From Nemertoderma westbladi (taxonomy: Eukaryota > Animalia > Xenacoelomorpha), in assembly GCA_032718475.1 (NCBI GenBank), contig JAUCBJ010007559.1, positions 1 through 51,963 on the forward strand: a stretch of 51,963 bases of DNA, given 5' to 3'. Every line of letters begins with the position of its first letter. Within the stretch, counting starts at the first letter, position 1. Of this stretch, positions 456-46,251 are shown one piece after another. The notes under the pieces were generated by a model. It worked only from the letters and a program-made list of their open reading frames with translations, was not told the origin of the DNA and searched no databases. A program made the position numbers and the translations under genes.

Positions 456-2943
456 CTATCTGTTCCTCCGGGGGTAGTTCCCCCTGGCGTCCTCTTCCCT
501 GGGTCGTTTCTTGGTTATCACCGTTCCTCTGGCATCATCCGCTTTCTGCTTTCGGACCTTCGCCGCCACTTCCTTGCTGATCCCGGTCGTTGGCTCCTTG
601 GGCGCTGGTGTTATTAGTGTCCGATATCGCTTCGCCGGTGGCCCCTCAGAATGGCCCGGTTGTCTCCCTCTAGTGGCGTCCCATAGGATCATTTTCATTG
701 CCTTTGGTACGTGCTCCGCCAAGAAATCCCTAAACTCCCTTCGGTTCTCTGGCGTCCACCTGTCCAGATACCTTTGCGTGTTCATCACTCCAGCGTACGA
801 CGCCGCCGTTGCTACCTCTTGCTAGGTAAACGGTAGCCTCCGCTTTATGATTTCCATGCGTCATGGCCCCGACGTCGGCCCACTCCTCGAATCTTGTGAA
901 CTTCTCCTCGTCGTTCATCCAGTCGCACTCGCGTCCGTAGTGTCCCCGAAAGTGGCACTTTGGACATCGGTTATGCAACCGTGGACACGCCCCCATCCTG
1001 TGACTTGGTTCTCTGCAGTAGAGACAAAAGGTTCCATTTTGGAACCGGTATAGGCAGCTGCTTTCCCGATGGGTCTGTCTCCCACAGTAGTCGCAGCCGA
1101 GTACCAATGTCTCCCGTCCCACCTCGTCTTTCGTCCCAAGCGATCTCCGCGGTCTGTGGAGTCGCTGGTAGGCGAACTTCTCTACGTTGGTCTCTCTATC
1201 TACGTCGATCTCTCCGCCCCTCTCGGGCATCGTCTCCCCGAATACTATCCGTGGTGCCGTCCCCGGTTGCTCGCCCAACCTGATGGTGCTCCCCGCGAAA
1301 TCCATCGCCGGCTCCTCATGCACCCAGGTCCGCTTGCCGGATCTGTTCCAGAAGGCCCTCGCCCCACTGGCCGTCACCACCCTTCCGCCAACCCAGTCCG
1401 TGTCCGAGTGGCCTATCCTCTCGATGGGCGGCATCTCTCCGAACTCGTCGTCGTCGTCCTCCTCTTCTGGTAGTGTCTCCAATCCCGGTATCCCGATGGA
1501 TCCACTATGTCCCTTCCCGCCTTGGCTCTCGCCCGTAGCTCTCCATCCCTCTAGCTCCCTTAACTTCCTTGGCGGTTGGTCGCCCTCGGCGCCCGCTGGT
1601 ATGGGCATCGTTTGCAACCCCGACGTCGACTGTTTCGGCGATCCCACCGTCCATCCCAATTCTCGCCCTAGAGACTCCCCCGAACTCCCTGACGAAGTCC
1701 AATGAAGTTCGTCTAGGCCCGCCTGTTCCTCGAAGCCGTAACTCTGTGTCCTGGCCTCCTCTTCCCTCTCCTCTGCTTCTATCCTCTCCCGTCTAGCGAC
1801 TTCTTCCAGTCGCTTTGCTTCTCGTCTATCCGTCTCTAGCTGCTCCCATCTCTGATACGGTGTATCTGTCTCCCCGTCTACCAGATGTCGGCTGTTGTAG
1901 TACACCGACTCGCCCTTCAGCCCCGGGTGGTCTACCAGACCGTCAAAGGCCACTTTAAAGGCTCTCCTGTAGCTTAGGGGTGATCCCGATAACAGAAATG
2001 CCCCTGGTTCCCTCTCGATAATCACGGTCATGAATAAGTTAAGCAAACTTATCATCATCCAGTCCTCCTGCAGGATATATCGCTTCTGATATACCTTTAT
2101 CGCTCCCCTGCGGAACTGATATACCTCCTGCTTTCCCGGTCTCGCTCCCCACTTTAGCGAGTTCGCTAGTTCTGCTCCGTATTCTTCCCCAAACTTCCCC
2201 CAGTCCATCGGTTTGTGGCATACGAGCCCCAATAATTGGCCCATTGCCACCGCCCCGCATTGGCCTGCGTTTTCGACTACCCCCAATCCATCCGGTGCCA
2301 TCATAGCCATAAAGACTTTCTGCATATCCAGGAGGTTGGTGGCGTCCGGACCGATGATCCTCTCCGCGTCCTCGCGAATCGCCGATCCCACTTTCGTCGT
2401 CGACTTCTCTCTTACTAAGACTTGTACCGCTTTCGGTAATCGGTCTAATTTCGGCCCGTCCTTCTTCCCATACGTCCCTAGGTCGAATAAGAAGGTGTCC
2501 CCATTTGGCGCGGCCAAATGTAGGAGTATGGTCCTGGCCGACCCTGCCGTTCCTCGTCTCGAACCCGTCTCGTCTTCCACGGTTCCCTCGTCATCTAGGA
2601 TCATATATCCTCCTCTGTTGACGGACTCTATGAATCTCTTCCAGTCCTTCCTCGGTGATTCCCTCGGGTATTTCGGTATCCCGAACTTCGCCTCGTCCCC
2701 TTTCACCACGTAGTGGAAGTGTTGGAAGATCGCGTTGTCCAGCGACGGGGTCCCGTAGGTCCCGACCAGCCGCTGTTCGTGCGCCTCCCGGAAGTGATCT
2801 TGCAGCGCTCGTGCCGCGTGACCCCTTTCCAACCTCTCGTAGTATCCTCTCGTCTTCTCTTCCGGATGCCTCTCGGTGAAATCCACCAGTATCTCCTTTC
2901 CTCCTGACTCCGCCTTTCTCTTTCTGATCAACTTACTCGCCAT
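456..2943 (-). CDS. Accessory ORF of element A: DEDDy-like 3'-5' exonuclease + acidic linker + 3 CCHC-type knuckles + C-terminal domain (tail disrupted near 820-860)
   Basis: 737-aa ORF 730-2943. It contains ILDDEG (ExoI-like), ILLHLAAPNGDTFLFDL, LPKAVQVLVREKSTTKVGSAIRED (ExoII-like), LLDMQ and QKRYILQED (ExoIII-like), then CDYCGRQTHRESSC, CLYCREPSHRMGAC, CPKCHFRGHYGREC. The homologue at 25769-26220 shows the true tail continues in the 456-788 frame. Confidence 0.8.
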
Positions 2944-3429
2944 TCCGAACGTTCACTCGCTCACCTGCAAGGTGGTGCCTTACCAAGGCGCAATACAGAT
3001 GAGTGATGTATCTAGGATGTTCTGTACAGTTCGATAATGGCCTATTTCCTACTTAACTGCGCCTTTTAACCTAAATTATTCCTAATTAATTTTGAAGCGT
3101 AAATGAGCGTAATTTACAATTTCTGTCCGTTACTTTTATTATGTTCTAGAATAACTTCCCTTTTGTTGCCACTATTTTACAACTTTCAGCCCTATTCTAT
3201 TTATTTATTTATTTACTTTGATTCTACTGTCCTACTACTTACTACTGCCTATGGATTATTCTATTCTCTAATCCACATTCTAGCCTACTCTGTGGGTCTA
3301 TGCAGTACAGCAGTATGCGTCGTGTGGCCACACGACTTATCCAGCTGTACTCATATGCCCCCCTCTCTCTACTAACTGCTAACTAATACCTATATCTATA
3401 TCCCCTTTTTACCTCTTACTCTCTCTCTT

Positions 3430-4030
3430 CTAACTAACGGTACTACGTACCCTCTAACTCTTCTCTAACTAACTAGCGCTACTTACGTACCCTCTAACTC
3501 TCTAACTAACTATTGGTACTACGTACCCTCTAACTCTAACTAACTAGCGGTACTACGTACCCTCTAACTCTCTAACTAACTATCGGTACTACGTACCCTC
3601 TAACTCTAACTAACTAGCGGTACTACGTACCCTCTAACTCTCTAACTAACTATCGGTACTACGTACCCTCTAACTCTAACTAACTAGCGGTACTACGTAC
3701 CCTCTAACTCTCTGACTAACTATCGGTACTACGTACCCTCTAACTCTAACTAACTAGCGGTACTACGTACCCTCTAACTCTCTAACTAACTATCGGTACT
3801 ACGTACCCTCTAACTCTAACTAACTAGCGGTACTACGTACCCTCTAACTAACTCTCTAACTAACTATCGGTACTACGTACCCTCTAACTCTAACTAACTA
3901 GCGGTACTACGTACCCTCTAACTAACTCTCTAACTGGCGGTACTACGTACCTCCTAACTAACTAACTAACTAGGTACTACGTACCTTCTTACTAACTCTC
4001 TGCCTACTTAGGTAGGAACTGCGTACCTAA
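3430..4030. repeat. Tandem array of 34/36-bp units (70-bp dimer) with GGTAC-tac-GTACC mini-hairpin core, about 16 copies
   Basis: taactagcggtactacgtaccctc recurs at 3541, 3611, 3681 and 3751, alternating with a tatcggtact variant. A T-run of about 21 nt follows near 4039-4059. Confidence 0.95.
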
Positions 4031-4147
4031 CATGTACTATTTTTTTTTTTTTTTTTTTTATTATTTTGTTTGTGGGAAGGGCGTCTCGCCCTCAATCCCA
4101 CCCCCCTCAGTCCAAAACTTGGACGACTAAACTTTTCTCTAACTCTG

Positions 4148-5200
4148 CTAAGGTGCCCCTTCTAATAGACAGCATTTGCCTACAGCTCTCCTGTAGGTTT
4201 TTCTGTCCTTTGCACCTATCTTCCCACCTATCCGCACTTCTACCAATCGGACTCTTCCCTCCTCGTCGGAGTAGGTGTCCACAACTCTCGCCAACCGCCA
4301 TTGGTTGTTGATGATAGTATCATCCGTAACGATTACGAGATCTCCCTCTCTTAACTCCCTGTTTGACTTCCTCCACTTGCTTCGTTTATGGAGTGTGGGT
4401 AGGTATTCCTCGACCCACCTCCTCCAATACTCTGCGCTTATTGCTTTAGCGACTTTCCAACTTTGGCGGGAGTGTATGTCATCTGGGTCTACACCCCGCA
4501 TATCGATGGTCGCTGGCCTTTCCATCAGGAAATGGCTAGGCGTCAACACGTCTAGTGACTCAGGGTCATCATTCTCCGGATATAGCGGTCTGCTATTAAT
4601 GATCCCCTCGCACTTCGCAAGTACTGTACGTAAGACGTCCTCAGTGACCATGTGGGTGTTCATTAGCTTCGTCATTAGACGCTTTGAACTGCCCACCTGT
4701 CTCTCGACGCATCCTAGTGTATGTGGTGCATACGGCGTCCTTCTCTCCCATTTTACTTGTCGTCTCCTCATGGCTGCCTTGACTTCTTCTCCCTCCAAGA
4801 TGTCCAAGGCCTCTGCCATCTCACTCTCTGCGCCCACAAAGTTGGTGCCGTTGTCGCTGTATATCACTGCGATCGTCCCACCTTTGCGGTCCCTAAACCT
4901 TTCTAAGGCATTAATGAACGCTGATGCGGTTGCATCTTGGGCGAGTTCTATCCCTACCGCCCGCGTATTGTTGCATACGAAGATAATGCCGTAGCGTTTC
5001 TCCGTGTGTCGCATCACTTTGATCTTTATCGGCCCGAACATGTCCACACCGCAATGCGTAAATGGCGGGTCGTGCTGTCTTACCCTACTCGCCGGTAGTG
5101 GCGCCATCTCCTGTATGGCTCGCTCCTTCTTCGCTCGTCGGCAGGTCTGGCACTGCCCCACTACCGCTTTAACCTTCTTCCTTAATTGTTTGACCCAATA
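4148..5200 (-). pseudogene. Integrase (rve core + BEL C-terminal domain) of element A, frameshifted from upstream pol
   Basis: CQTC, PFTHCGVDMFGP, IYSDNGTNFVGA, VERQVG, INSRPL, LTPSHFL, WRLARV. Frameshift near 5200 (frame ...YWVKQLRKKVKAVVGQCQTC). Confidence 0.93.
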
Positions 5201-6806
5201 GGTCCTCCTTTATCTCTGTGAGGGTTCGGTTGGTGCCCCCGTGCAATATCGATTTGTCCCATATCGAGTCCCATATAATCTGGTGGACTATTGGCGATCC
5301 TGTAGGAATGATGATGATGGGTTTTGGTGGTACGACTATGCTGTTGTTGTATCCCACCCTAGAATTCATTACTAGAATCCCGTCGTCATTGAGTTGTGGC
5401 GACAGCGTAATCAGCTCGCTGTCCCGTCGGAGGTGCTGTTGGTTACCGACGCGTTCCACCTCGTCGCCGTAGTTCTTCCGTTGTTCATAGCGGATCACTG
5501 CCTTGGCCGCTCCTTCCAGATCTATGGTTGTTCTGATCTTCTTGTCCTTGCCGACTCCCGCAAGGAAGTTCCCGAAGGCTCTCCAGTACGCCACCAGTTT
5601 CTTGGTCTTATACCAACTAGAACTGTAGCTGAGGAGTTTATCCGTCGGGTTATCGCACAGTTCCCGTCCTGGTTGCACGTCCCTAATCTCCCTCACCATC
5701 TGGGAGTATATCTCTTCTCCCTCTGAATCTCCCTCTTCTCCTTCTGATACTACTTCCGAGCCCGGGTCCACCTTCCTCATCGGCGGCCAGGCCTCCCTAT
5801 CGCTCAGAAATTGTGGCCCATGTTGCCACAATACTTCCTTCTTCAGGAAAGTGTGGCGTTCCACGCCCCTTGACAGCAAGTCCGCTGGGTTCTCGTCTGT
5901 TGGGCAGTAGTGCCACATTTCCAGTTCTGTGCTCGCCCTTATTTCGTCCACTCTATTCGCGACGAATATCGGGTATCTCGTCCTTTCGTTATGTAGCCAA
6001 CCAAGCACTACCATGGAGTCCGTCCAGTAGTGTGTCTCCACTATGTTGGGAATAGTATCCACTAGGTAGGCTGTGGCTCTTACTCCTAGTCTCGCAGCTG
6101 TCAATTCTAACTTGGGAACTGATGCTGAATCTGGCGGCGTTGACTTTGCTTTGCTAAAGGCTAGTCTGGGCTTATGAGCCCCCTCTCGTTGTACTAAATA
6201 GAGTGCCGCTCCGTACGCTTCCAACGACGCGTCGGAGAACATGTGTAGGTCCAGATTCGTCATGTTCCCATCCGGGAAATACACCCTTGGCATGTTGTAT
6301 GTTCCCATCTTCTCCAAGTTTCCTGTCCACTTGCTCCACTGCTTCTTGATTTCCTCTGGTACCTCTACGTCCCACTCATCTTTCAATTTGTATACTCTCT
6401 TGAGTATCTGTTTCCCCGTGACTAATAATGGGGATGCTAGGCCTAGGGGATCGTATATCCTTGCTATATACGATACATAACCCCTCTTCGTGTGGATGTC
6501 TGCGCCCTCCTGGCTCAGCTGATACTTCAGTTCGTCTGTCTCTCTATCCCACACGATTCCCAATGCCTTCTGCTGGGATTCCGTTCTGTTAATCGCCATG
6601 TCCTGCCCTTTGGCTGTTGTGGGATTATCCATGGTCGATTCTGGTTTCCTGTCCTCTATGGCTTTGATAAATTCTTCCGAACTGGATTGGAATTTTGTCA
6701 GGTTAAAGCCGGATCCCTTTAGGATGTCGCGAACCTCGCGCCCTGTATCCAGTATCTCCTTAACCGTATTTCCAGACTCCATTCCGTCGTCTACGTAGAA
6801 ACCGCG
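5169..6806 (-). pseudogene. RT C-terminal part (YVDD) and Pao-type RNase H of element A
   Basis: RGFYVDDGMES lies directly after the in-frame TGA at 6807-6809. Also KALGIVW, IYDPLG, LHMFSDAS, PKLELTAA, YWTDS, FVANRV, NPADLLSRG, HGG. Confidence 0.93.
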
Positions 6807-8729
6807 TCAAATCATATCGACGGCCCTACTGCTGTATTTATCTTCCTTCCCCTTTACTGTGTCTCTTACTGCCATAGTCGTCGTAAATGAAGACGACTTG
6901 GCCCCCATGTTCTGTACTACCATCTTATATGCTGGTATTATCGGCGGTTCTTCTTCGCCGTTATACCATAAGAAGCGTTGACTGTCGCTATCTTCTTCCG
7001 TTACACGGACTTGGTTGAACATGCCTTCTATGTCACACGTGAAGGCGAGTTTCCCATTTCTAAATCTAAGTAACACCTCTATGCCCGAATTGTAAATGTT
7101 TGGGCCTTCTAACAGGTAATCGTTTAAGCACTTCCCGTCGGTCTTTGCCGATGCGTCGACTACCATCCTTAGTTTACCTTTCTTTGGGTCTAAAGCCACG
7201 TGCAGTGGCAGGTAGTATGTTCTATCCGTGTTCGGCTGGTCGACCGGTAACTCCACGGCCCATCCTTTCTCGACGTACTTCTTAATTGTTCTGTGGATGT
7301 ACTCATTCTTCTCGGGGCTCCGTTTTAGTGTTTGTTTCAGCTTGCGGAGTCTCGTGAGTACCATCCCCCTATTATCGGGCAGCGGTATCTTTGGTAGTTT
7401 CCATACCATTCCTATAGTATACCGTCCCTCATCGCACGTCATTGATTCCTCCACGCTTTGTAGAGCCTGCTTGTCTTCTACCGAGGTCCCGACCCCGGTT
7501 TCTTTCAGTCCCTCGAAATCCTGTCTGAGCAGTCTTTTGAGCTGCTCCTCTGCTCCCTTGTCACCCATTTCCTGCATTGTTCCCGCGAACATGCATCCTG
7601 ATGTCTCCGACATCCTGAATGGTATCTTGCTCTTGATGGGACCACTCAGCGTCCACCCGAATGGTGTTAATATGGCCACCGGGTCACTCTGCTTGTCTTC
7701 GCCGAAGACCGTTTGCATTCTTTCGTGGGCCGTTGGGCAGTCCATACCTACTATGATGGATACCTTCCTAACGTCCACGTCTGGGATTGAGAAGTCAATG
7801 TTGTCCAGGAATTTATTCTGCTCGACCTCGATGTTGGTTGGCCGCCTGGCATTGATATTAATTGACTCTATCACTTGAATGGGATCGATGGTTGCCCCAT
7901 AGTCGCATCCTGGTGCCACTGCTGCAATTGCGCACCGTCCTGTTCTCATCTCCAGGATCTCATCTTTGCTAGAGATGGTTGTTACCGCCATCCTGCTTGG
8001 CCTCGTTCTCAATCCTATCTCCTCGGCCACCCATTCCTCGACTAATGTGAAGGCAGCTCCACTATCAACCAGCATTAGTGTTGTTACTGATCGATTGCCT
8101 TCCCCGATCACTCGTACTGGTACTACTCCAAGTAGCACCATTCCTCTCTTCTTCGCCCCTACTGTGCTCGTCGCCATCGTTTGGCCTCTCCTTTGACCAA
8201 ATTTCATTGGCTTCTCCTTGCACTCCCTTGCTGTATGTCCACTCATTACACATCGCGAGCAGATTTTATTGCTGAACGCATAGTCTATCTGATCTTGCCT
8301 AGGTAGCGCCTGCCAGTACCTGCAGTTCATAGTTTGATGAAGCGCATTTGCGTGTAGCTGGCATTTGCTCTTTGGGTCGTAGCCCTCTTTATACAGTGCA
8401 TTGCGTATCGCAGTTGCGTTCGTACCAAAGTCCCTACTATTCTTATTGTTTGGGTTTTGCCTATTGGACCTACTGGGGTTATGTTTATTCGTGTTGTTAT
8501 TGTTTCCCTGTCCGTTCCATGATGTTGTCTTATCCTCGGCTAGCTGTGGACTTGCAGTCCCCTGCGTTGCTGCATATGGCAATGATTGCCTGAGTCTCGG
8601 TAATGCGCTTGATGTGTTGTGCTCTGGTTTCGGTCTATGGTAGTCTGTCTTCGGTCCCTTTCCCAGGCTGTCTTCGCTATAGACTGGGTCAGTTATTAGT
8701 TCAGCCTCGTAGTTTAAGAAGTTTGACAT
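6807..8729 (-). pseudogene. Gag zinc knuckles, aspartic protease and RT N-terminal part of element A
   Basis: CSRCVMSGHTAREC, LVDSGA, YYLPLH, KLRMVVDASAK, CLNDYLLEGPN, LLRFR, DIEGMFNQV, QRFLW. Ends at a premature TGA four codons before YVDD. Confidence 0.92.
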
Positions 8730-8821
8730 TTCTTCTAAACCCGGTTCCGCACCCTTCCTATCTCGAGTGGAGAAGGCGATTTTCCTCCACTTGTTGCGCA
8801 GCCAGTTTGGTAGTGCCTGCG

Positions 8822-10270
8822 CTATCGTGGTGATGTTGTTGGACGCATTGAGCGCGCGTCTAGCGTCTTCAGCACGATTAGAGCCTTTTCGACTTTGTTA
8901 GCGAACGTCTTAATGCTAACGGGATTATCCTGTAGGCCACCCGATGTTATGCCTCTCAGCGTCTGCCTGATGATCTTGGCCGGGTACCCGTATTCCCTAT
9001 CCAGTGCCCGCCATGCTGTCGTGAAGCCGCCCTCTATTCCTTGATATTGCCTCACGATGTCGTATGCTGGGCCTCCCGTGTACACTTGCAGATACTTTAG
9101 GCACTCCGCCTGCGTCAAGTTCTTTGTTAGTATTTCGTTACTATACATGCGCCGAAACTGTAGATATTCTTCCGGCCTGCTCCCATCGAATTTGAATGGT
9201 TCCACGGGTGGTAACTCGATCCTCGTTTTCAACGCATCGATCAACGTGGCCATCCCCATCGCCTGCGCTTCCAATGGATTCGATGGATGCTGCATGGTTT
9301 CTCCTGTCTGGTGCGTTCCGTCTGTCCTATTTCTTGACTTTCTCTGACTTGGGTATGTCATCGGGGGTAGCGGCCCCCTCCATATGTCTGTATCACACGA
9401 CCTATTCTCATCCAAGGGTCTCGTTGTTCTTGCCCCTATCGGGGTATATTGTTGATATTGTGATGGGGGAATGTCACCCTGTCCCCCCCCCCCCACCGGT
9501 ATGTTTGGTACTGGGGTTGATGTTAATATGTTGGGGCCCATACACCTATCCGCAATAATTCCCCCTTCCCCTGGGTATATGTTATGTCCCTGCATGCTGT
9601 AGTCATACTGCTGTGCTGGTACCGGTATAGGCCTATCAGCTTCTGGCCTACTCGCCGGTATGTATTCCGCGACTTCCGGGTTTAATCCCGTTGTCCACGC
9701 CATCCTATCGCCTACATTGCCTCTCTCAGTATGGCCTATTGTATGTGCAGTAAGGCCTACAGTATGTCCTACAGTCTGCATGTGTCGCTCGGGATCGAAG
9801 TTTATTCTTCTCGAATAATCCTCCCCGCGGCTACCGTATTCTCGATCGATAGGTGTATTCCGCCGGAAAGTTTCTCTTCGACCCCCCTCTCCACTGTTCT
9901 CATCTTCATACCGGTATATCGCGTACCCCTCTCTCGGCGCGTAGTGCGCCTCGCCGGGTCGCATCTCTCCGGGGCGACGGCAATCTCCCGGAGTCCGACC
10001 CCACTGACTCTCTGTTCTCATCTCGACTACTGACGGCTCGCTATCCGTCCTCGCTCTTCTATCGTTCGCGGCGATACCTCTACTACTGTCTTCTCTTCTT
10101 CTCCTTTCAGTGGAGCGTTCCCGTTCGTGAGATCTCTCGTCGACCTCCCGGTTAAACCCCACTGTTCTTCTTCCCTCTTCTGATCGGGCTCGACGCTTCG
10201 TCCGCCCTCTTACGACGTCAACCTGTCTCTCACTGCTCGGTCGCACGCCGCCCGCTGGGGATACTCGCAA
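8822..10270 (-). pseudogene. Gag core (DUF1759-like) of element A
   Basis: LPPVEPFKFDGSRPEEYLQF...CLKYLQVYTGGPA...AWRALDREYG. Frameshift near 8855 into the downstream frame. Confidence 0.85.
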
Positions 10271-12568
10271 TCCCCCTATTACTTTCCGTCGGCGGTTGTT
10301 GCGGTTTACCTATTTCGGCCCGCGCATTATCCGCTGACGGCTGTGGGACACTCTCTGCCCCCCCCCCCCCTTTCACCGCTAACTCGCTGTTGTGGGGTTC
10401 TCGTAGCCCCCCCCCCCCCCCCACTCGCCACATCTAACTTCGCCACACCTCACCCCGCTACTATATCCCTCTCCAGTCGACACATCAACCCTACCGCGGT
10501 CGGGTCTATTCACCCCCGCCTCTCCCTCTGCTATTGCGTGGCCTACCAGGCCCTCTACTCCCTGTCTACCAACTATGTGGCCTACCAGGCCCTCGCTGGG
10601 TCTACCTAACCCAGCTATTCCCTGCCTACCAACTACATGGCCTACCAGGCCCTCCTCTGTCTGGCAATACACGCCCGACGTGTTTACATTAATAGCACCC
10701 GTATTGGAAACGGAATTAATTTGTTCGTTCGAAATAAAATCATTTGAATTATCTTGCGCGACTACACTATCTGAATTATTTTGTAAATTCGGGCTCGCTG
10801 AATTATTTAAGTTATTTAGATTATTTTGTGTTATTGCATTACTTAAATTATTTTGTAAGTTCGAATTTGGGTTATTACTTTGATTAATTGGATTATTTTG
10901 CGTAGATACATTAATATTAGAATTATTTTCTACATTAATATTAGGAATGTTCTGATTTAAATTTAAATTACTACCACTAGGTAAAGTATTTCCTGCAATA
11001 AAGGTTTGATTAGAATTGTCCCATACGGTACTATTAATATTGACCACGTCTACTGTACCATTATCATTATTACCCCCCCCCCCCCCCCCCCCGCCCGTAC
11101 GGTCACACCAGTTTTGAGTCTGTCATGCGGTCCCTGTAAGTGGGGTATTAATGAATGTATCCACGGCCCCCGGCTCCTCAAAAATACTCGAGCCAGCCTT
11201 GCTCTCAGACTCCCCCATCTGCGCCAGTTCCACCTCACGCGTGTGTACAGCTTCGTACTCTACGAGTTTGTCTCGCTGTTTCTCCAATTCTTTTCGCTCA
11301 CGCTCCACTTTCGCTATTTTATCCATAGCCTCCCGTTCGGTCTGCTTGGCCAATTCCACCTCTCTCCTAATCCCCTCCCTTCACCTCGCCTCACGCGCTC
11401 TACGCTCACTCTCCTCCCTCACTTCACGCTCTCTGCGTTCACTTTTCTCTCTCGCCACACGCTCTTCTTGTTCCTTCAACTCTATTTCATCATACTCCCT
11501 AAGGCTCCTCATGGCCCTTTCGGCCTTCTCTCTTATCTCTCCAATCGACGCCATTTCCCTCTCCAGCAGCACTCTCCCTTCCTCTAGCCGTCTACCTACT
11601 TCTCTATTACCTTGCACTGCTAGATTGAGACGGTACCTAGCGTCTATCTCTCTCACCCGTCTTTCTTTTGCGGAGGATGTAGCAGACTTATCGGTTGTGG
11701 AGGATTCCCTCCGCCTTCCCGATCTACTAGCTTTCCCCCTCCTTCCGGAACTCCCTCCGACCGACGAGACCGAATCCACGGGGTCAGCCTCGGATTCGCC
11801 CTCCTCAGGTCTGTTCCAACCCACTAATTTTACTCCCCGGGCATCGACCAAGTATGGCCCTATGTACACTGACGCTACGCTAGGTTCCATACTCCCACAT
11901 TCCCATAGTTCAAACAGTTCGCTGGCAACCCCTTTTGCTCTCTCCTCGGCTAGTTCCCTCTGCCCAAAACGCATTAGGTAATTAAAGTGTCTATCCGACT
12001 CACCTAGTCGTTTCCTCAGTCTCACCTCGTCTATCGTTTTCCCCTTTCTGGCCTCCTCTAGTAGTCTCCGGGTCGCGTTGTAGGCCCGTCGAAGTCGCTC
12101 AGAAACCCCGACGTCCTCGTCGCCAACCTCTCGTCCGTCTCTCCGGGTTCAACGTCGTACCGGCGGCCCCAGCGTCGCCGTTCCGGCGGGCCGTCCGTCG
12201 CCCTCGGCCTGTGGCTGGCCGGCGACATCGGTACCGATATCTCCTTCGTCTCTCTGCATCCGGGGCCGCACCGTCGGCCCCACCGTCGCCGTTTCGGCGG
12301 GCCACTCGTCGCCCTCAGCCTGTGGCTGGCCGGCGACACCGGTGCGTCGACCCCCGTCCCGTGTCGACTCGTCTCCGTCTCCCTCCGTCCCGCTCTCTCT
12401 TTCTCTCGGTTCGACCTCGGGTTCCAGGCCCCCCTCGTCCTGAACTGCCGGATGACCCGTTACCGATGGGTCCGGCGTCGTGGGCCTGTATCGCCTGGTT
12501 GCGGCCTCGCGGATCGTTAGCTCTTCGTCCGGGGTCCGCGTCGGTGTCGTGTCACCTGTCCGACTCAT
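10271..12568 (-). pseudogene. Long low-complexity Gag N-terminal region of element A, split into several ORFs
   Basis: Consecutive minus-strand ORFs (12149-12568, 11381-12025, 11123-11359, 10379-11047) with E/R coiled-coil and Asn-rich segments. Several breaks fall at poly-C runs. Confidence 0.6.
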
Positions 12569-12627
12569 CTCTCTTCTGCAGATTTCGGTGGCTAGTGGTT
12601 ATTGAGTTTATCTAGGGCGGCAGCTGG

Positions 12628-24954: not shown

Positions 24955-26460
24955 TGTACGCGTCGTCGCGTCCGTGGGCTGCTGGGCTAATGCTGGATAT
25001 ATATATATTAGGCCGAAGGCCATTGAAAACGACAGAGTTAAATTGTCAGTATTAATAATCACAGTAATTGATAATAGCAGTCTGAATATAATAATATGCA
25101 ATACGGTCAGTAACGACGACGGTCAAAACTATTCCGGTCTCACAACTGTAAGGAAATCAACTAAACTAACATTCAGTAATCACAATGGTTATATCATTGA
25201 CACATATCACATCAGCCCTACACTACAGGGCGGCCTTAATATCCAATAGATGCGCGCTTGTCCTCCCCAATGTGCTTTCCCGCCGACTATTGACTTAACC
25301 TGATTAATTCTCACCTCGCCACTCCCTGTTGGCATTATCCCTTGGTGCTAGCCTTACTAGCTTGTTTGTCCCTCTGAGGTGGTTTGACCTCTCACCTCTC
25401 TCTGTGGCTTACGGCATGTGTCGCCCCAGTTGGTTATGAGGTGAGATCATTATTGGTAATCTCACATCGCCAACTATATTGGTAAAATGCCACTAACCCC
25501 ATTTTCGGTGGGTAATGCACGGAATTGAATCCACTTACACTCCCCCCCATGCTATCTTCCCGGTGAGAAGATAGCATCAACCTTAAGTGCGCTTCAATTC
25601 CGCTGGAATCCAATCTAATATTGGATTTGGAGTGGAATTTTCTTCTTGGGGTCGACTTTCCAGGCCGGCCCCCATGGGTCTGTTATCACTACCCATCCCT
25701 TGTACACCTGCGAGCTACGCCGTACCAAGGTATCTGGCGTTTCTGTTTTAGATGATTGCCCTCACTCCTCACACAATTTTCCTCATGGACTTTGTTGGAC
25801 TTAGTCCCACTGAGTGTCCCTCCTGTCTCCCTCTGGTAGCATCCCACAAGATCATCTTCATCGTGCGCGGCACGTGTTCTCCCAGAAAGTCCCTGAATTC
25901 GATCCTATTTTCTGGTGACCATCTGTCCAGGTATCTCTGGGTGTTGATGACCCCTCCGTACGATGCCGCTGTCGCTACCTCCTGATACATGAATGGTAGT
26001 CTCATCTTGGTGATCTCCTGGTGGGCTTCCACGTTTATGTTAAAGAAGCCCCACCGGAACTCCTGGGATGCATCCTTTGTCGTGTCATGACTATGACGTC
26101 GGCCCACTCCTCGAAGATCAGGAAGTTCTCCTCATCGTCCATACAGTCGCACTGGCGCTTAAAGTGCCCTCTAAACTTGCACTTTGAACATCTGTTGCGC
26201 AACCTCGGACACGCACCCATCTTATGGGTTGACTCACGGCAGTAGAGACACGCCGTCCCCTTCTGGAAACGGTATAGACAGTTATTTTGCTGACGGGTTA
26301 ATCTCCCACATTAATCGCAACCGTGTACTATTGTGTCCTTCCCCAAGTCGTCCTTGGCTCCGCGTGGCCTCCTGGGTCTATGGAGCCGCTGGTAGGCAAA
26401 TATCTGGACTCTGTCCTCCCTACCCATGTCGATGTCCTCCTCCACCCTCGGCATTGTTTC
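24955..26460 (-). mobile_element. Remnant C: 3' end of a BEL element related to A (LTR-like part, polypurine tract, accessory ORF tail)
   Basis: 25769-26330 encodes GACPRLRNRCSKCKFRGHFKRQC, FEEWADV and NTQRYLDRWSPENRIEFRDFL, matching A. A G-rich tract (minus strand, 25540-25548) abuts TGTAAG at 25539. The left boundary is uncertain. Confidence 0.75.
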
Positions 26461-27344
26461 TCCAAACATATAACGATATTAACGAACGAACCTCCATAAC
26501 GATATTGGAAATACATAAATAATAAAATATCCATAATAAATTCTAAATTATTAGTGTATTAACTTGTTTGTTAAATAACTAACCGAATTCAACTTACCTT
26601 TAATCTTATATACTAATCTAAATATACATAATTATAAAAAAGTCAGCTATGTCATATCAAAGTTATACAAAACATTAATCTTTATAAGCCTGAATATCTA
26701 TAATACTTACATGTATTTTATTAACAAAAATTCAAAGTAAAAGATTGTAGTTCTTAATCTTAAGATTAATTTAAAACTTACACAGCATTGGGGTAAAATA
26801 TTAATATGATATAATAAAAAATAATCAAATAAATAAATAAATATCAGTAGGCTAAAGGTAAGTGGAGTCATCTAATTTAACCGAATAACTAACCGAATAG
26901 GATACAGATATTTTACGATAATCTAAAAAAACAAGTTTATACGGTGCTTAGTACTATTACTAGTAGAATACAGTTTGAATTTCGCTCTAATAAAACCCAA
27001 TAACGACCAATAAACCAATGCAAACACCCCAATAACGACCAATAAACCAATTAAAACAGTCGATTTTAAGAGCCAAACTTTATACGAGTTTTTCTCAGAA
27101 TGAACATTTTTTCCCCAGGTCCCTTTTCTCGCAACCAGCCACTTGCTACTCTCTATCCATGATCCAAGGTACAGGAAGTCGTCAACCTTCCTTAGTTGAT
27201 TATTATCGATTGTTGTCGATTGTTAAATGCAATCGACCCCCTTAGAAGATATTGGAGTTATTAATTATATTTATCAATAAACAATAAAAGTAATACAGTA
27301 TCAGCTATAATAAATATTAATTGGCGAATATCTAGCAATTTCAG

Positions 27345-35499: not shown

Positions 35500-36751
35500 T
35501 GTTCGCGCTTTTGAAGACCTTTAGCAGTTTAACCTGCCAAAATTTATATGTCTTTTAGTTAATTAAAACACCTTTAGCATACGACAATCTTTTATGCTAA
35601 TACGCAAAACATTAGCCGAAGTCAGCCCATGCGCGATCATTCACCCGATGGATCTACACCCGGGAGGCTGAATTCGGATGCTTAAATTTTATTATTGCAG
35701 TGTAAGGTTGCAGTGTAAACTTACTGTATTATTCGATAGATCGTTAATAATTAATCTCTGACAGATATTATTGGCTTTCGGGAAATATTAACAGTTCCTT
35801 TAGGACGTGGCGCTTTATCTATTTAAACAGAACTAAGACTTATACTAAAACGCAACGATACTGCTTATGATTGAAGTATAAAGCGTATTCTTTAGGAAAT
35901 ACTTTGTTACCAATCACAATCATACACACTATTCTGCCGACCGTCAGTATATTTGATCACACATAAAGAGAGCAGCAATTGACTCACGTAGGGTCTGCTA
36001 AATAACATTGGATTCAATACACACCACATTAATATAAATCGCAATTGTTATGTATAGCCGGTCTCTCTAACCTGTAGTGTATCAAGAAAATTGGGAATTT
36101 GGGTGATTTATCCGTATTATCCAAAGAGCAATATTTCCATCAACAAATAGGTACAATTAATAACTGACGGTAAAATAACAGTACAAACAATATGATTAAT
36201 GCAGTTAAATTAAGTGAGTATGTTAATTAGTTAGTTATTGAGATTTGTTAAGTGAGGTAACAGTTTATACTTTCGATAATTCAAGCAGTTTTACTAGAGT
36301 TCTTCCCAAAAAGCCGGTGTTTCTGGCTTAGACAGCAATAACAACAAAGTATCAAGTAAAAGCAGTAAGACTGAACACTCTCCTTATGATCGGCTGAAAA
36401 GCTACACGTCGACAGGAAAAATCGCTCTGATTGGCTCAAGCCAAACAAAGAACTATGCGTCCAATGGATGTTTCCATGTCAGCAACCAGCTGTTAGATGT
36501 CGTAATATGAATCATCACGGCTAAGCTGTGAAAGGTAGTTGGTGCATTACAGGTTTTTTGCCTTACCATGTCCGCCAAAACACGTATATAGCAGAATGAC
36601 TTTTATGTCCGTTAAAACACCTGTAACGGTACCTTGCGGGCGAGGGGAATATATATACAGTTAGAGAACCTTTTTAGAGTATTCCAGCGCCTGGGGGGAA
36701 ACTGGATTGCGAAGCAAAAGGGGCCAGTTATATCCCACAGAAGCTTTTACA
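35500..36751 (-). repeat. 3' LTR of element B
   Basis: Same length as 46265-47516, with no mismatch seen by eye. Confidence 0.97.
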
Positions 36752-36760
36752 CCGCTCCCA
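36752..36760 (-). promoter_or_regulatory. Polypurine tract of element B (TGGGAGCGG)
   Basis: Purine-rich tract directly before the 3' LTR on the minus strand. Confidence 0.7.
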
Positions 36761-36829
36761 GAAAATGGGATTTGAGTCTATAAATATACAAAAATCACAG
36801 TTTCTAATATACGTAAATACTCTAAACAG

Positions 36830-38278
36830 TTAGTCTTTCTTGCGCGGACGGCGTTTACGCAGTTTTTTAAAGCTAGCAAGAGTCCTTTTCTCTTTGGGGC
36901 GAGCCACTTTACGAGGAGGGCTATAACTCCTGGGTGAAGGGTGCAATATGATTGCATCAGAAGGTATGGGATTGCGATCGGTGTATCCGCCGGTCGAAGT
37001 ACCGGGTTGATTGACATCAACGTCCGGGGAGAGGGGTCTAACGGCTTTGAGAGCTCGTTTCAAGACAGCCGCTCTTACGGGTCCTTTACGAGTGGTCTGA
37101 ACGAGGGCCGTGGGTGGACCATAGGCAGTTAGAAACTTCCTTGGTTTAATGGTTCTTTCCAACTCGCGTTCGCGGGCTCTGTACTCGTAAGGCTGTCGAT
37201 ATACTTCCTGTAACTCAGGGTGTGAGTTGACAAATAAGTCTCCATAGGCCGGATCTTGACGGATAAAGTTTATTAAGTTGTACGAATTGATGTCACTCGG
37301 ATTAATGCTCCTGAGAAATTTGCGTACATATTTGGTTGAAATACATTCTCCAACGCGCTTCAATAGTTCATAACTTGATATGCGTAATTTCTGTTCGACA
37401 GAAGCGAATAGATAAGGATGTAACGCATAAACTCCTTCGTAAGCGCGTCCGGGATAATAGCGATGGCGCGAATCACAATATAAATCAGTGTTCGCTTCCC
37501 AAGCTCTGATGTAACGTAGTGTGATCATTTCATCTACGCTTTCCAAATCGTGATTAAAAGGGCAATCGAAACTGGCATGTCCCTTTAGTTGACAATGGTG
37601 ACATTGAGTCATAAATTGAGGGCAAACCGCAAAAATGTGCAAATTATTAAATCTGCAATACGCGCAATAAATTTCCATCGCCGGTTGTTCGTGGAAATAG
37701 GAACAGCGGACGTTTGTGTCCATGGGCGTAACATGGTCTCTCGATGCGCATAACCGACAACGTTGCCGAGAAACATAGTTGGCATGGCGATAATCGTACG
37801 CAGTGAGACACTGTGGACTTTGATACCATTCTAGGATGTAATCGTTGTCGCTGTTCCGAGCGCGATAGGCTGAATCTCCTCAGATTCTAGACATATTGGT
37901 TCGTCTTCCCAGTCTGTTACGAATAGAATTTTCGTGATCTATTCTCGGTTTATCGTTACGACGCCGCTGGGTATGATATTTAAATAGAACCATTTCCCCT
38001 TCGGTGTCTACATCGTCCGTATCATGTAAATCGATAGGATGGCCGGTAGTTAAGAAGTCCATGTACGTACCATTACGATTCGTATAGCGAGCGGTGAATT
38101 TTCCATAGTCCGCTTCGCGCGTAAGTTGTTCCTGGGACATCGGCGGTTCGATATAACGACCATCGTCCTCAGTAATAGTCGGATCGGCTTCACCGCGTAT
38201 CAAGCTATCCACAAACGCTTGTAAAGGTAGAGTATATCGCTCTCTAATACCAAGGTCATCTTCTATCAATTCCGTCAT
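36830..38278 (-). CDS. Accessory zinc-knuckle ORF of element B, one frame with a single internal TGA (37880-37882)
   Basis: ORFs 37880-38278 and 36830-37723 are in frame and joined by 52 open codons containing CRLCASRDH. CAYCRFNNLHIFAVCP and CHHCQLKGHASFDC follow, collinear with A's accessory ORF. Confidence 0.75.
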
Positions 38279-39090
38279 ATCTGCTATCTGAGTTTGTTAA
38301 TATCAATATAAGCTAATATTTTAGGCAAGCGGGCGTCGCTGCCTACTAGGCTTTTTGCCCCCGGACAGTGGGTTTCTCAGCGCCGATGTACCGCTGTCGC
38401 AGTGTTTACGCCAACATGTAGCAACAGCACGACAACGATAACCGGCACAAGTCCCACCACTGTCCGTCCCAAAGGCTTGAATCCACTTGAGGTTATCTCG
38501 GTAGAGTTAGGGCTATTTTACAATTGCGATTAGCTACTGTAAACACACTTTAGTAGTAACATTCACCTATAAACGCACAAATTCCATACAATCATTACTT
38601 ACTGCACACATGCATGCCATTTGTCCGTTAGTCAGTGTCTTCCAGAATGTCACGTTATTACTATGTATCCTTGGATACTAATAGCGCGCTATGTATACTC
38701 TTATGCTACGCAATGGGGCAAGCTTTTATTGGTCCTTTAACTTGTTTCTAATTCTAGCGTGGGTGTTGCCATGGTGACATTATGGAAAACTAGCGGTAGA
38801 ATTAGGGCAATCCTCAGGCATACAGATCTGGGATGTTATTTAATAGTAATTCTTTAATTGTCAATATCCTCTTTATGCATGATTTTATAAATTTTATCGG
38901 CTATTGACTATATGTTGGAGATTCTCACACTCTAGTACACTCAATATGAATCTCCGCTCCCATGATCTATTAATTACTGGAATTTTGGGAATGTTATAAA
39001 TTGTACAAAATGACAATTTATGAAATTCATTTGAATATGAATTTAAATTTATTCCCGTGAATTTTATTATTTGATATTAAATTGACATAA

Positions 39091-39385
39091 ATTTTATTCC
39101 AGAGCATATCTGGGGACTTAGGATCCTTAATTCTATAAAATAGTCCTTCTAAGAATATCGGTAAATACTGCGATATCTTAATTGACTAGAAATTTTAAAG
39201 GATCGGGATTTTACAGATTTTAACAAAATATTAAATTAATATTTAGGATGGGCACCGATTTATTCCAGAACTTGTCGGGGGACGTTAACCACTGATTCTA
39301 GAATTTGTCTTTCAAGTATATCGGTGGGTGCCACGATATCTTAATCGACTAGAATTACAGATGGTCAAAAGTTTAACAGATTTAT
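39091..39385. repeat. Diverged tandem duplication, about 165 bp, inside element B
   Basis: tttattccaga...cgatatcttaat.gactagaa...acagattt occurs twice. Confidence 0.7.
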
Positions 39386-39900
39386 TTGCAATTTACGCTA
39401 CTGTTAGAGGGACATCACGCTACTATATGTATTATTTGTTATAAGGTAGAAGAGCAATATCGCACGAAGCAATGTCAGTGTGAAGAGGCAAGTCGTTTCC
39501 AAGGTCTACCCAGAGCTTGGTTTAGCCGAGACACGAGGATCTGAACTTTGCATTCCTAATACTCTGCCTACCAATAATACTTAAATATAGTAGTGGCTTT
39601 ATTGTACTTTAAGAAGTACTGACATGTCATCTTACTATAGTCTCGCATTTATAATATAATACGGACAGTAAGGAAAGAGAAAAATAATTATTTCTTGCCG
39701 TCGCACTAAATATATTGTAAGTAATTAAATACGTAATAAACACTAATATATTGCACTAATTTACTAAATATTCTAAAATAACATTCTACTAAATAAAATT
39801 AAAGAAAACGATTATAATAAAATTACATAATAATACATACATAAATATAAAATAAAAACAAATATAAAATGATATAGTCACACGCCCACTCCACATGCTA

Positions 39901-42900
39901 TCACGTTATGGAGTCCCTAGATATTTGCCGGATTAGGGAAGTAGTCGTAGGAAGAGTATCTTGCCTTCCATAGTTTTCGGACAGTTTTCGGTCTCTTTCC
40001 AGTAAACATAAACGACTAGCTGGGCGATTGAGTTGTTGTGTTACTTTCTCCGCTCCCTTGGCCTGTCTAATTTCTGCCGTGGTAAGATGAGGAGGCCATT
40101 CTTCTTCTTCTTTACTTAAGGAGTCGGATCCACCTAACCAGCCTGGAGTATCTATCAGTTCTTGAGGAGTTGCTCCTCTGGAAGCGATGTCGGCTGGATT
40201 AATCGTCCCAAGGCAATGTCTCCATTGATCTACATTGGAGTTAATATCGTCATTATCTGAGGAGTATGGTGTTCCCTCAGTTGGGTCGTCCACATCACTG
40301 CTCTCCACTTCCCCCTTTACTTGGTATACCTGTTGTTGAGGTAATCTCTCTTTGAGAGTTCTACGGGAAGGGCCAGTGAAGTACCAACCTACTCTAGTTC
40401 TTACCGCATAGGTTTGTAGTGGCTGTGGTTGAGCAGGCCGTTTCTCTAATGGCTCGAGCGCCTCATGCGCGTTTTGGCCGATGAGTATTTGCACTCCAGG
40501 ATAATCGGTTTGGAATCGAGGTATCTCAAGATGTTGGATGCACTCGTCCTCGTCCCAGTTATAAGGTTCTGCTTGAGTAGTAGCAAAGTTCTTTATAACC
40601 ATCATTTTTACTGACCTTATACTTTGTGTTCCTAACTTATCCTGGGGGGTGGACAACACACCTACATAGTAATCTGCCGTTAGGGTAGATTTCCAAACCT
40701 GCATAATTCCTGACATATTCAATTTAGTCCGGAACTTGGGTTGTCCAGCAAAGATATCTTCGGCTAGTTCTTGATCGATGAATGTTCCTGTACTGCCGGA
40801 GTCAAGTAGGGCGTTCACTATGTAACTCTTGTTGGGACCATGAACTCGAACTTGCACTACAGGAAATTCTCTTATTCCTATGTTGGAAGTTGGAACTTTC
40901 CAAGATGGTTGTTTGTCAAAAGTAGTTGGAGTAAACTCGTCAGTGTCCTTTTCATCCGTAAGTGCTCGATACACTGTGGTATTTATTAGATAACAGGATT
41001 CGTTGGCATCGGAGAATTCGTCTGTATAGAATCCTTCCCACTCAGAACTTTGGTCAGTGTCGTTCACATCACTGAATTGGACATGTAGTTCGGGCTCACT
41101 TACCTGACTCGGGTGGTCTCGATCGAACTCACTGTGTAACAAGATGTGATGTTTCGCGCCACACTTTGCACACTTTACGTCGGAGTAACAGGTTCGCCGT
41201 TGGTGTCCTGATCTGAGGCAATTATAGCATAACCGCTTATTCCACAGGACTGTACGTCTGTCTACAGGGGATTTCTTTAGAAATTCAGCACACGCACTCA
41301 AACGGTGGGGCCCGTCGCACAGCGCACATTTTGGTTTGATGTTACTCACCTTAACTTGGTTAACGTTATGCACTCTCGTTCTTTCTTCGGGCTTTCTTCC
41401 GTGAATTCTCTTAGGAGACGTAGGAGGAGTTGTTGTTACCTGTTCTCTCCTGTCACTGGTTCGAGACTTGTATTTACTTACGTCTTTATAGGTCTTGTTG
41501 TCATAGTAAGATTTTGCTGTGTCTTTCCCGCTGTCCTCTTCTTGAGAAGCTTGGCTCTCGCCGTCGTCAGTATAACACACTGGTATTATCCTTCTCCTAG
41601 AATCGGGTTTCTCACTTACCTTATTTTTCGATGTTTTCTCTCTGGACTGCCTTATGAGTTGTAATTTTACTTCACTATCTAAGAAAGACATGAGATCAGC
41701 CATGGTAGGACTTCGTCGTTGTTGTTCATTCATGTACAACACTTTCTTGTCCCAGCGTGTACATACTCCACCCTTTGGTAAAGTAGAGACTACGGCTCCA
41801 ATAACCATGGAACTCTGATATTCATGCGACTTACCTAACCAGTCCAATTGTCTACAGATCTCTTGAATTTCATCGGAAAACTCTATAATCTCGCTACTAA
41901 GGAAGTGTCGGGGGGCTACTAATTTTGCATACAAATACTTAGCTATGTTATCCTTGTTACCATACCTGATGTTTAATGTATCCCAAACTTGTCTTAATCC
42001 ATCTGGATGTCCAATAAACTTTAATGCCATTAACTTGGGAGGTCCTTCCAAGCACTTGATGAGGAATCTAAGTTTCTCTCCGTTAGATAGTACAGAGTTC
42101 TGTATGCTATCTTTGTAATATTCGTTGAAAGGTAACCATTTCATCTCATCTCCATTGAATTTGACGATCTCTCCCACTTTGACCGCTTGGCGGGCTTCTG
42201 TTCTAGCCATCTGACGCGTAAAGCTTTCTTGGGCCATCGTGTTATTTAATATCGAATTATCGGTATATAAATTTTTCGGATCATTATCAGGTCTATAGGG
42301 AATATCATTAATAACAGGTCTATAATCACCCTTAATAGGGTTTGCTATAGGAGTTTCAACTTCACTAGCAGTATAGATGCGTGTAGGCTCCACACCTTGC
42401 GCATGTAATACTTCAGACCTAACAGGTTGACACAATGTTACAGGGGGTATTGGTATGCCCTTTTGGATATTGACTAATTTGTTGCGTTCTAGCGCGATAC
42501 TTTGCTGCACTTCTTGCAACTCTGCTCTACCTTCCCTCACTGTTCCCTTAAGTTGGTGGACAGTCTCCTGCATCTGTCCTAGCAGGAGATTCATCCCCCG
42601 CCGTCCCTCTTCCACCCACTCAACCGCCGAAGCGGGAGTCGCCAACATAGTAGCGGGCTGACGCGGGACGACGGGAGACAAATTATTGATTTCTCTCTCT
42701 GCTATCTGGACAGGGGTATTTGCATGGACTGTTCCACCGGGTACAGGCAGTGTAGTGCTATGTAAAGGGAATTTAGAGTTAAGCTCTGGAAGTGTAGGGG
42801 TCTCTAGCACAGAAGTAACTTTGGGAACTACAGGCCTAATTATTTCAGGTTCATCGACTATAGTAGGGAGTCTTTTGACCTGGATAAATTGTTCTATGGG

Positions 42901-43956
42901 TTCTGCACTACCTAAATCTGTGCTAGTTAGCTGTCTTTTAACAGCTGGGGGCAAATCAGGCAATTTACGACGGTAATATGTTTTTCTACGCCTACTTAGA
43001 TGAGATCTATCTCCTCCGCCTTCAGGGTCGGTAGTATCGCCTTCCTCCGATGATGTGTACCCCTGGCGCTTGGGAGTAGATTTTCTCATCATCTGCATTT
43101 GATTAGCAGTAAACTGTTTATTTATACTGTCTTGTGTCTCTTGCAGATTCTCCAACTCCAGTTGGGTAATCTGCTCAGATGCTCTCCGTTCTGCTTCGGC
43201 CACTGCCCTTTCCGCCTTTGCTTCTGCCGTAGCCGCCGCCATAGCCGCCGCCTTTTGTTCCTCTATCCTTCTTTTCTTTATTTGTTCTTCTTGGACTCTA
43301 ACGAGGCGGAGTTTTTCATCACATTTAGCTTGTTCTGCAGCTAACATTTCCGCATCGATTGCGTCCAACACAAGCTTGGTTCCTTCACTATTAGGGCGAA
43401 GTCCAGACAGTCGTCTCCTCAACTCTTCGTCTCCTATGAATCGCTGATAGTCTGACAGATATATGTCAATGGCGTCTCTAGTTCGCGGCTTCTCTGCTGC
43501 TGTTAATTCGCTTTCCACTTCGCTTTCCACCTCGCTTTCCACTGGAGAAGAAGTGGCGTCGGTTGATTCTTCATAGGTTGGCCGCTCATCATAAACCATA
43601 TCCGCCATCTTCGCTCCGCGTTCGGGCGTCCGCTCAACAGTATCCGAACTACTGGAGCTATCGGGCCGCTGAGAACTAGGTTCTTGGCTAGGAGGTTGCT
43701 GCTGTTTTATAGCTTCTTCTTGATCCCGCTTGACTTGGGCCCGAGTGCCTATGGCAGACCAACGGCGCTTCACTAACTTCGCAAAATGCGAAATCGCTTC
43801 TACCAACCTAGGTTCTGATACAACCACTGCAGGGGTTGCCCTTCTTACAGTATGAGGGGTTTCAGACCTCAGTCTGGGATTCTCTACACTTTGATCTGAG
43901 AAACAGTCTGTTGTTTCTAGGAGACTATCTGACAGAGTTTGCCTTGTGTCAGCCAT
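39901..43956 (-). CDS. Gag-protease polyprotein of element B fused in frame to the RNase H tail
   Basis: KFNGDEMKWLPF...EKLRFLIKCLEGP, CALCDGPHRLSAC, CYNCLRSGHQRRTC, CAKCGAKHHILLH, ALLDSGS, AVRTRVGW, then QWRHCLGTINPADIASRG. No RT motifs. Confidence 0.93.
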   Translation of the reverse strand: MADTRQTLSDSLLETTDCFSDQSVENPRLRSETPHTVRRATPAVVVSEPRLVEAISHFAKLVKRRWSAIGTRAQVKRDQEEAIKQQQPPSQEPSSQRPDSSSSSDTVERTPERGAKMADMVYDERPTYEESTDATSSPVESEVESEVESELTAAEKPRTRDAIDIYLSDYQRFIGDEELRRRLSGLRPNSEGTKLVLDAIDAEMLAAEQAKCDEKLRLVRVQEEQIKKRRIEEQKAAAMAAATAEAKAERAVAEAERRASEQITQLELENLQETQDSINKQFTANQMQMMRKSTPKRQGYTSSEEGDTTDPEGGGDRSHLSRRRKTYYRRKLPDLPPAVKRQLTSTDLGSAEPIEQFIQVKRLPTIVDEPEIIRPVVPKVTSVLETPTLPELNSKFPLHSTTLPVPGGTVHANTPVQIAEREINNLSPVVPRQPATMLATPASAVEWVEEGRRGMNLLLGQMQETVHQLKGTVREGRAELQEVQQSIALERNKLVNIQKGIPIPPVTLCQPVRSEVLHAQGVEPTRIYTASEVETPIANPIKGDYRPVINDIPYRPDNDPKNLYTDNSILNNTMAQESFTRQMARTEARQAVKVGEIVKFNGDEMKWLPFNEYYKDSIQNSVLSNGEKLRFLIKCLEGPPKLMALKFIGHPDGLRQVWDTLNIRYGNKDNIAKYLYAKLVAPRHFLSSEIIEFSDEIQEICRQLDWLGKSHEYQSSMVIGAVVSTLPKGGVCTRWDKKVLYMNEQQRRSPTMADLMSFLDSEVKLQLIRQSREKTSKNKVSEKPDSRRRIIPVCYTDDGESQASQEEDSGKDTAKSYYDNKTYKDVSKYKSRTSDRREQVTTTPPTSPKRIHGRKPEERTRVHNVNQVKVSNIKPKCALCDGPHRLSACAEFLKKSPVDRRTVLWNKRLCYNCLRSGHQRRTCYSDVKCAKCGAKHHILLHSEFDRDHPSQVSEPELHVQFSDVNDTDQSSEWEGFYTDEFSDANESCYLINTTVYRALTDEKDTDEFTPTTFDKQPSWKVPTSNIGIREFPVVQVRVHGPNKSYIVNALLDSGSTGTFIDQELAEDIFAGQPKFRTKLNMSGIMQVWKSTLTADYYVGVLSTPQDKLGTQSIRSVKMMVIKNFATTQAEPYNWDEDECIQHLEIPRFQTDYPGVQILIGQNAHEALEPLEKRPAQPQPLQTYAVRTRVGWYFTGPSRRTLKERLPQQQVYQVKGEVESSDVDDPTEGTPYSSDNDDINSNVDQWRHCLGTINPADIASRGATPQELIDTPGWLGGSDSLSKEEEEWPPHLTTAEIRQAKGAEKVTQQLNRPASRLCLLERDRKLSENYGRQDTLPTTTSLIRQISRDSIT

Positions 43957-44091
43957 GTTTGTTTACACAGTTGAATGCCTACGGTTACAAATACAGTCAA
44001 AGTAAGTCTAGTAATTCAGTATCACCGTTAGCCTAATAATTAATTGCCGATACTGCTGCTCAGTGTAGCGTGATATATATATAATATATTA

Positions 44092-45960: not shown

Positions 45961-46251
45961 TTATCTGAACAATCTGAGCAGGGTCACACGCCTTCTGCTC
46001 AATATTAGCCTACTAGTAAATAAAACTGACAGAAATAGACCTAAGTAAAATCCCAATAAAAACCAGGCGTCCCCGATTTAATATCGAGACCTACCGGTAT
46101 ACAATAATCAAAATCGAATAATACTAAATGTACTTGTACAGCAGTACCGGTACCGGTGATGACAGTTAGGCCTACTGACCTACAGAAGCACCGGTTCAGT
46201 TTTACCAGTCACTACGGTATTTTGCAACCTTATTGCCTACTGCAATAAGAT

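Follow-up and report, generated by a model that had tools for sequence, protein, structure and literature searches.

LTR retrotransposons that carry a third gene for a DEDDy exonuclease behind pol are known from bdelloid rotifers. According to the available text of Rodriguez et al. (2017), such ORF3s are found in the Juno and Vesta elements and are shared with Athena/Terminon elements; their acidic motif is changed to DEED, their activity is unproven, and the same two roles are proposed for them as for the gene described here (PMC5408684). Later reviews repeat the rotifer finding (PMC5718144, PMC6431247, PMC6338049), one of which speaks, in its accessible part, of a well-known accessory domain. 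The extra genes of BEL/Pao elements, as covered by the available text of PMC13524379, are env-like, i.e., an F-like env in roo and chuvirus-like glycoproteins in mosquito elements. A related arrangement is also known from a cellular enzyme, namely the RNase D of Trypanosoma brucei (TbRND; PDB 7c42), in which the DEDD domain cuts an RNA end and the CCHC fingers bind five to nine bases away from it, as described in the accessible part of PMC7797062.

Here, we studied a contig of Nemertoderma westbladi (JAUCBJ010007559.1, positions 1 to 51,963; the whole stretch of 51,963 nucleotides is referred to as the window). A first-pass annotation, made from the sequence alone, had described a BEL/Pao retrotransposon with a 3'-5' exonuclease and triple zinc-knuckle gene in the env slot, and had implied that such a gene lacks precedent. 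The latter does not stand, since rotifer LTR elements with a DEDDy ORF3 downstream of pol have been described, at least according to the available text of PMC5408684. As far as searched, it is the BEL/Pao host, the knuckle fusion and the D-E-D-E site that are new, while the kind of gene itself is known. That is, no exonuclease gene on a BEL/Pao element was found in the main text of the papers searched.

The BEL/Pao call itself agrees with Pfam, i.e., the domains are Pao-type and arranged in the order PR-RT-RH-IN. Read in its sense direction (minus strand throughout), the element comprises a long gag-side region (8822..12598), which keeps to one frame, is interrupted by in-frame stops and holds DUF1759 near its end (E 1.4e-09), followed by the gag knuckle, the aspartyl protease and the RT start (6807..8897; in-frame stop at 6807-6809), the RT end (YVDD) with RNase H (5169..6806; Pfam Peptidase_A17 'Pao', E 7.6e-41) and the integrase (4148..5209; Integrase_H2C2, rve) with DUF5641 (E 2.2e-24). 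The gag-side part 10379-12598 of the DUF1759 frame is unusually long, contains charged, Asn-rich and repeated stretches and has no Pfam match. A spacer of 1204 bases (2944..4147) separates the integrase stop from the start of the third gene, in the following ORF3, whose ATG is located at 2943, i.e., 1.2 kb behind the integrase and on the element's sense strand. The spacer holds a tandem array of eight 70-base units (3423-3993), the length of which varies among contig copies; it might serve the regulation of ORF3. The element reaches the window edge: within the window, neither an LTR pair nor a 3' LTR of the ORF3-bearing element was found, and scanning revealed no convincing combination of LTR end and primer site. 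For the integrase, one relative (33% identity) was found, on a 1.5 kb contig without downstream DNA. The gag-pol of this copy is broken, as is its ORF3.

The first-pass annotation had reported a single long ORF from 456 to 2943. This is indeed the gene span of the family, but the present copy does not hold it in a single frame. Here, the open part (730..2943, minus strand) encodes 737 aa up to a stop at 730-732 and departs from the family frame near 858, where the copy is broken; a stop is located at 822-824, and the conserved C-terminal tail of the family's ORF3 (456..821, minus strand; no Pfam family) lies in another frame. An isolated diverged ORF3 fragment elsewhere in the window (25769..26522, minus strand) covers knuckles and tail at about 72% DNA identity, with 83/128 and 50/59 residues identical. 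When compared to this fragment, the frame of 456-821 shows 37/50 differences at third codon positions (50/59 being its count of identical residues), whereas in the frame that reaches 730 only 9/29 residues are identical. This frame comparison shows that the family's ORF3 continues to 456, with purifying selection acting on it, and that this copy is 3'-damaged.

All motifs named beforehand were recovered on the minus strand, i.e., ILDDEG at residues 115-120 (D117 at 2595-2593, E119 at 2589-2587), LLHLA starting at residue 140, FLFDL at 151, LPKAVQVLV at 169, KVGSAIRED at 184 (D192 at 2370-2368) and QKRYILQED at 286 (Y289, E293 at 2067-2065, D294). They are part of a DEDDy-like 3'-5' exonuclease domain (1999..2661, minus strand; residues 95-315) with D117, E119, D192 and Y289, and with E293 at the fourth carboxylate. 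It is followed by a charged helical stretch and a low-complexity acidic/Gly-Ser-Pro linker (1264..1998, minus strand; residues 316-560; based on sequence and composition) and by three zinc knuckles (925..1095, minus strand; residues 617-673, starting at 617, 640 and 660). Each of the three is an exact CX2CX4HX4C, as expected from the earlier CCHC reading; Pfam zf-CCHC matches are weak and remain below the cut-off. ORF3 shows no introns. The element further holds a hairpin with a 5-pair stem and a GGU loop at 10649, 10589, 10550, 2988 and 410 (minus strand); two such hairpins flank the family's ORF3, about 45 bases to either side.

ORF3 is the element's own accessory gene, real and under selection. 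We assign it to the element because of its position behind the integrase, its strand, its composition, its large family and the related ORF of a sister element. In terms of composition (GC, purine bias), ORF3 (0.57, 0.63) resembles the pol region (0.50, 0.61) and not the flank (0.36, 0.51). Hydropathy, sequons and family search agree with the earlier description of an accessory gene in env position without env features: the best 19-residue hydropathy is 1.32, there are only two sequons, and the Pfam search gave no match to env families. ORF3 thus shares with env-carrying BEL/Pao elements the presence of an extra gene but differs from them in having neither a hydrophobic, i.e., transmembrane, anchor nor fusogen homology or any other match to an env family.

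Contigs from two studies match positions 1-4300 (13,883 and 5,700 contigs) with depth in all 30 bins, where the first study may be the window's own source and read depth does not equal copy number. The contig depth is unbroken from the integrase end through ORF3, and no single contig spans integrase to ORF3. For the variant statistics, the best-supported 40 of 435 variants were used, of which 36 fall in the analysed ORF and four outside its open part. In residues 90-345, 14/19 variants of this best-40 set are silent third-position changes, compared to an expected silent share of 23-31% (P 4e-6 to 1.3e-4). Respective numbers for the linker and the knuckle region are 6/11 and 2/6 within the same best 40 of 435, among which codons 117, 119, 192, 289, 293 and 294 are untouched. 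ORF3 accordingly appears to be under purifying selection as judged from these variants, where the silent excess comes from a selected subset of rows and is a hint of strength rather than a dN/dS. In a dataset labelled as a second organism, several ORF3 pieces were observed over 475-2907, one of them with 9 differences in 339 bases; the ORF3 family may extend to a related species, while we do not count these pieces as evidence of expression.

The window also contains the sister BEL/Pao element, which is internally deleted (35500..47516, minus strand) and bounded by identical 1252-base LTRs with TG..CA ends and a 5-base target duplication. Because its LTRs are 100% identical, we consider it a recent insertion. 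It is without RT and integrase, i.e., its gag-protease joins an RNase H remnant, and the third ORF is kept. This ORF (36830-38296) lies inside the LTRs and shows one in-frame stop and three knuckle-like motifs. Its knuckle region aligns with that of ORF3 at 27% over 82 residues (pairwise E 2e-06), and neither Pfam nor the WRN-like profile introduced below provides a nuclease signal for it. The pair suggests that BEL third genes are modular in this host, i.e., that a knuckle cassette is combined with different N-terminal partners. The sister element is located between fragments of non-LTR retrotransposons, which were observed at 18719-19183, 34210-35433 and 47512-48867; the part 34210-35022 shows weak RVT_1 and DUF6451 matches.

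The N-terminal domain had been placed in the WRN-exo/EXD/Nibbler group. An RNase D/WRN-like character is found at moderate strength (ESM, profile, alignment), but no standard profile matches. That is, the Pfam check proposed along with the group assignment came out empty at E up to 10, and NCBIfam, PDB sequences and phmmer gave no exonuclease match (PDB only two chance PCF11 rows, E 1.5-2). Among 1.84 billion protein representatives, no true homologue was found, both of the two matches being repeat artefacts, and word searches, contig collections, plasmids and phages provided no ORF3 homologue. In the ESM Atlas, ORF3 reaches 0.94 to PF01612 clusters (171 shared features; 24/30 matches are PF01612) and 0.95 to unnamed eukaryotic clusters, where 4-10/100 shuffled proteins score 0.9 or more in the respective control. 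Leaving PF01612 aside, the best named matches are still of DEDD/RNase H type (0.77 and 0.75, weak leads only).

As exonuclease references we used 68 prokaryotic proteins, with the WRN-like profile built from 30 bacterial ones. This profile ranks ORF3 first among 215 window frames, at a whole-window E of only 0.57; the domain scores 5.3 bits, above 1000/1000 shuffles, and the ExoII block gives most of the signal. With the profiles of RNase D, NrnC and PolA, the domain does not stand out (44, 154 and 14 shuffles are equally high), and hhalign is not significant (probability 0.23%, while shuffles reach 7.9%). The domain shows 12-21% identity to the references. When aligned with 50 of them using MAFFT, D117, E119, D192, W265 and Y289 are invariant, E293 falls on the last catalytic Asp, and all seven motifs are in correct order and spacing; in a looser alignment control, 4/129 shuffles equal the real sequence in conserved columns. 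Ordered-block tests yielded 0/3 significant results with blocks too long to help, and 1/4 after the settings were changed.

Regarding the individual sites, D-x-E of ExoI is present as D117 and E119, which are invariant in the MAFFT alignment and located in the first strand of the guided model discussed below, while the automatic block tests did not place ExoI there. The Asp of ExoII is D192 according to the WRN-like profile, the block test and MAFFT. Y-x3-D of ExoIII is absent, i.e., Y289 is kept and followed by E293 and then D294, where 68/68 references show Asp; alignment and block comparison with the references thus bear out the Glu-for-Asp exchange that had been noticed before. Since the ExoIII Asp is replaced by Glu, we file the domain as DEDDy-like and not as canonical.

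Structure prediction by AlphaFold and Foldseek, also part of the earlier proposal, gave a divided answer. The unguided model is unusable (pLDDT 32, such that a Foldseek search of it is meaningless), even if its strands and helices are, at low confidence, already in DEDD order. The alignment-guided model reaches a pLDDT of 74 (85-96 in the core) and fits, with Z 11.8-13.6 to diDNase/NrnC, RNase D, WRN, TbRND, EXD1, Nibbler and Egalitarian; being built on the exonuclease alignment, it is circular and only shows that the sequence fits the fold. The structure comparison of this guided model does not separate the subfamilies, with WRN, EXD, Nibbler, RNase D and Egalitarian at a tie. We consider an RNase H-like DEDD nuclease fold of the ORF3 domain likely, and the domain is probably a divergent DEDDy exonuclease. 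For catalysis with Glu as the fourth metal ligand, we see even chances.

Compared to the Juno and Vesta ORF3s as described in the available text of PMC5408684, ORF3 likewise follows pol as an ORF of its own that is not env; it encodes an RNase D-like DEDDy domain with an altered acidic motif and lacks a transmembrane segment. It differs in its carrier, which is BEL/Pao here, where that text names only Juno, Vesta, TelKA and Mag, and in its site, which reads D-E-D-E instead of DEED (as to which Asp changed, this is a comparison of letter order only). Furthermore, ORF3 is a fusion that also comprises a conserved tail and the three CCHC knuckles, a difference based on description only. TbRND shares the succession of DEDD domain and tandem CCHC motifs (Z 12.6 to the guided model). 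It is, however, an enzyme of the cell's mitochondria that has four fingers, an intact DEDD and a linker of 28 residues, following the accessible part of PMC7797062, whereas ORF3 is encoded by a mobile element and shows three knuckles about 300 residues away from the domain and a Glu at ExoIII. ORF3 and TbRND probably represent one design reached separately. With the PF01612 group of WRN-exo, EXD2, Mut-7 (Nibbler), EXD1 and Egalitarian, ORF3 has in common the motif order, the KVG..I..D block, W...Q..Y...xW and the ESM signal; it differs by its missing Pfam match, the replaced ExoIII Asp and insertions after ExoI and before ExoIII.

By analogy, we tentatively propose that ORF3 is a knuckle-clamped 3' trimming enzyme serving the element's own replication, a role to which we give somewhat less than even chances. 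The proposal is modelled on Trypanosoma RNase D, in which the DEDD domain trims an RNA end while the CCHC fingers grasp the molecule upstream of it. In ORF3, the three zinc knuckles would likely grip single-stranded RNA, the 3' end of which is then predicted to enter the RNase D/WRN-type nuclease domain. Likely substrates would be the element's own RNA, primer or reverse-transcription intermediates, a part of the model with less support than the nuclease fold. The gap of about 300 residues between domain and knuckles, compared to 28 in Trypanosoma RNase D, counts against this mechanism.

Other explanations concern the origin of the gene, its fold or its role. A host gene or passenger that adjoins one element copy would account for the missing 3' LTR in the window and for contigs that do not reach from integrase to ORF3, but it conflicts with the intron-less, element-like composed ORF, the thousands of diverged contigs over it, the dispersed second fragment and the related ORF inside the sister element's LTRs, such that we regard it as most improbable. 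It is also improbable, if less so, that the exonuclease likeness is partly chance, i.e., that a real knuckle-bearing accessory gene has an N-terminal domain of another fold. All standard profile searches being negative, the share of the ExoII block in the profile signal and the shuffled proteins with high ESM scores would fit such a case; seven motifs in the right order and spacing, the independent agreement of ESM and WRN-like profile, and the DEDD order of strands and helices in the (low-confidence) unguided model argue against it.

If the fold is accepted, ORF3 might still be a nuclease-dead RNA-binding scaffold in the manner of Egalitarian, EXD1 or Maelstrom, which packages or localises element RNA together with the knuckles, perhaps via the GGU-loop hairpins. 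The altered fourth carboxylate points this way, as does the sister element that retains a knuckle ORF without a detected nuclease domain. Egalitarian is the top Foldseek match of the guided model (E 8e-5) but only rank 14 in the structure comparison, and the model is guided. The catalytic residues of Egalitarian are dispensable, and it binds the localisation stem-loop of the I-factor retrotransposon, as stated in the accessible part of PMC13186709. The hairpin pattern occurs five times in the element and not in the other 38.8 kb, with at most 2 occurrences in 500 shuffles; however, the pattern was defined post hoc, 3/5 copies stem from one local repeat, and only 1/6 folded hairpin contexts is well above shuffles. 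D117, E119, D192 and Y289 are all kept, which is beyond what a dead scaffold needs; we consider this role rather unlikely. Also unlikely, and more so, is a role in counter-defence, in which the nuclease would shorten or degrade piRNAs or siRNAs that the host directs against the element. Such a role would fit the abundance of the element family and the fact that two proteins of small-RNA pathways, Nibbler/Mut-7 and EXD1, belong to the tied structural matches, but no subfamily affinity to Nibbler is demonstrable. As a rule, piRNAs are bound by PIWI proteins and carry a 2'-O-methyl group at their 3' end, which makes them resistant to such enzymes. In the accessible parts of the respective sources, the knuckle-plus-DEDD analogue is described to trim small guide RNAs (PMC7797062), and a helicase, another accessory domain of retrotransposons, has been reported to suppress silencing (PMC6338049), whereas the rotifer study reports no clear link between ORF type and copy number (PMC5408684). 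Still more doubtful is the far-reaching version by which a BEL/Pao lineage would have built its own small-RNA trimming enzyme, i.e., a knuckle-clamped D-E-D-E exonuclease, from a modular third gene with knuckles that the BEL families of this host have in common, and would use it to disarm piRNA/siRNA silencing.

With ORF3 as the element's own gene and its domain as a probable divergent DEDDy exonuclease, exonuclease third genes are extended to a second LTR superfamily, namely to an abundant family on which purifying selection acts. The likely RNA-binding knuckles give a concrete substrate model for exonuclease third genes, and whether such a gene acts as replication aid, RNA scaffold or silencing suppressor is testable with one small domain.
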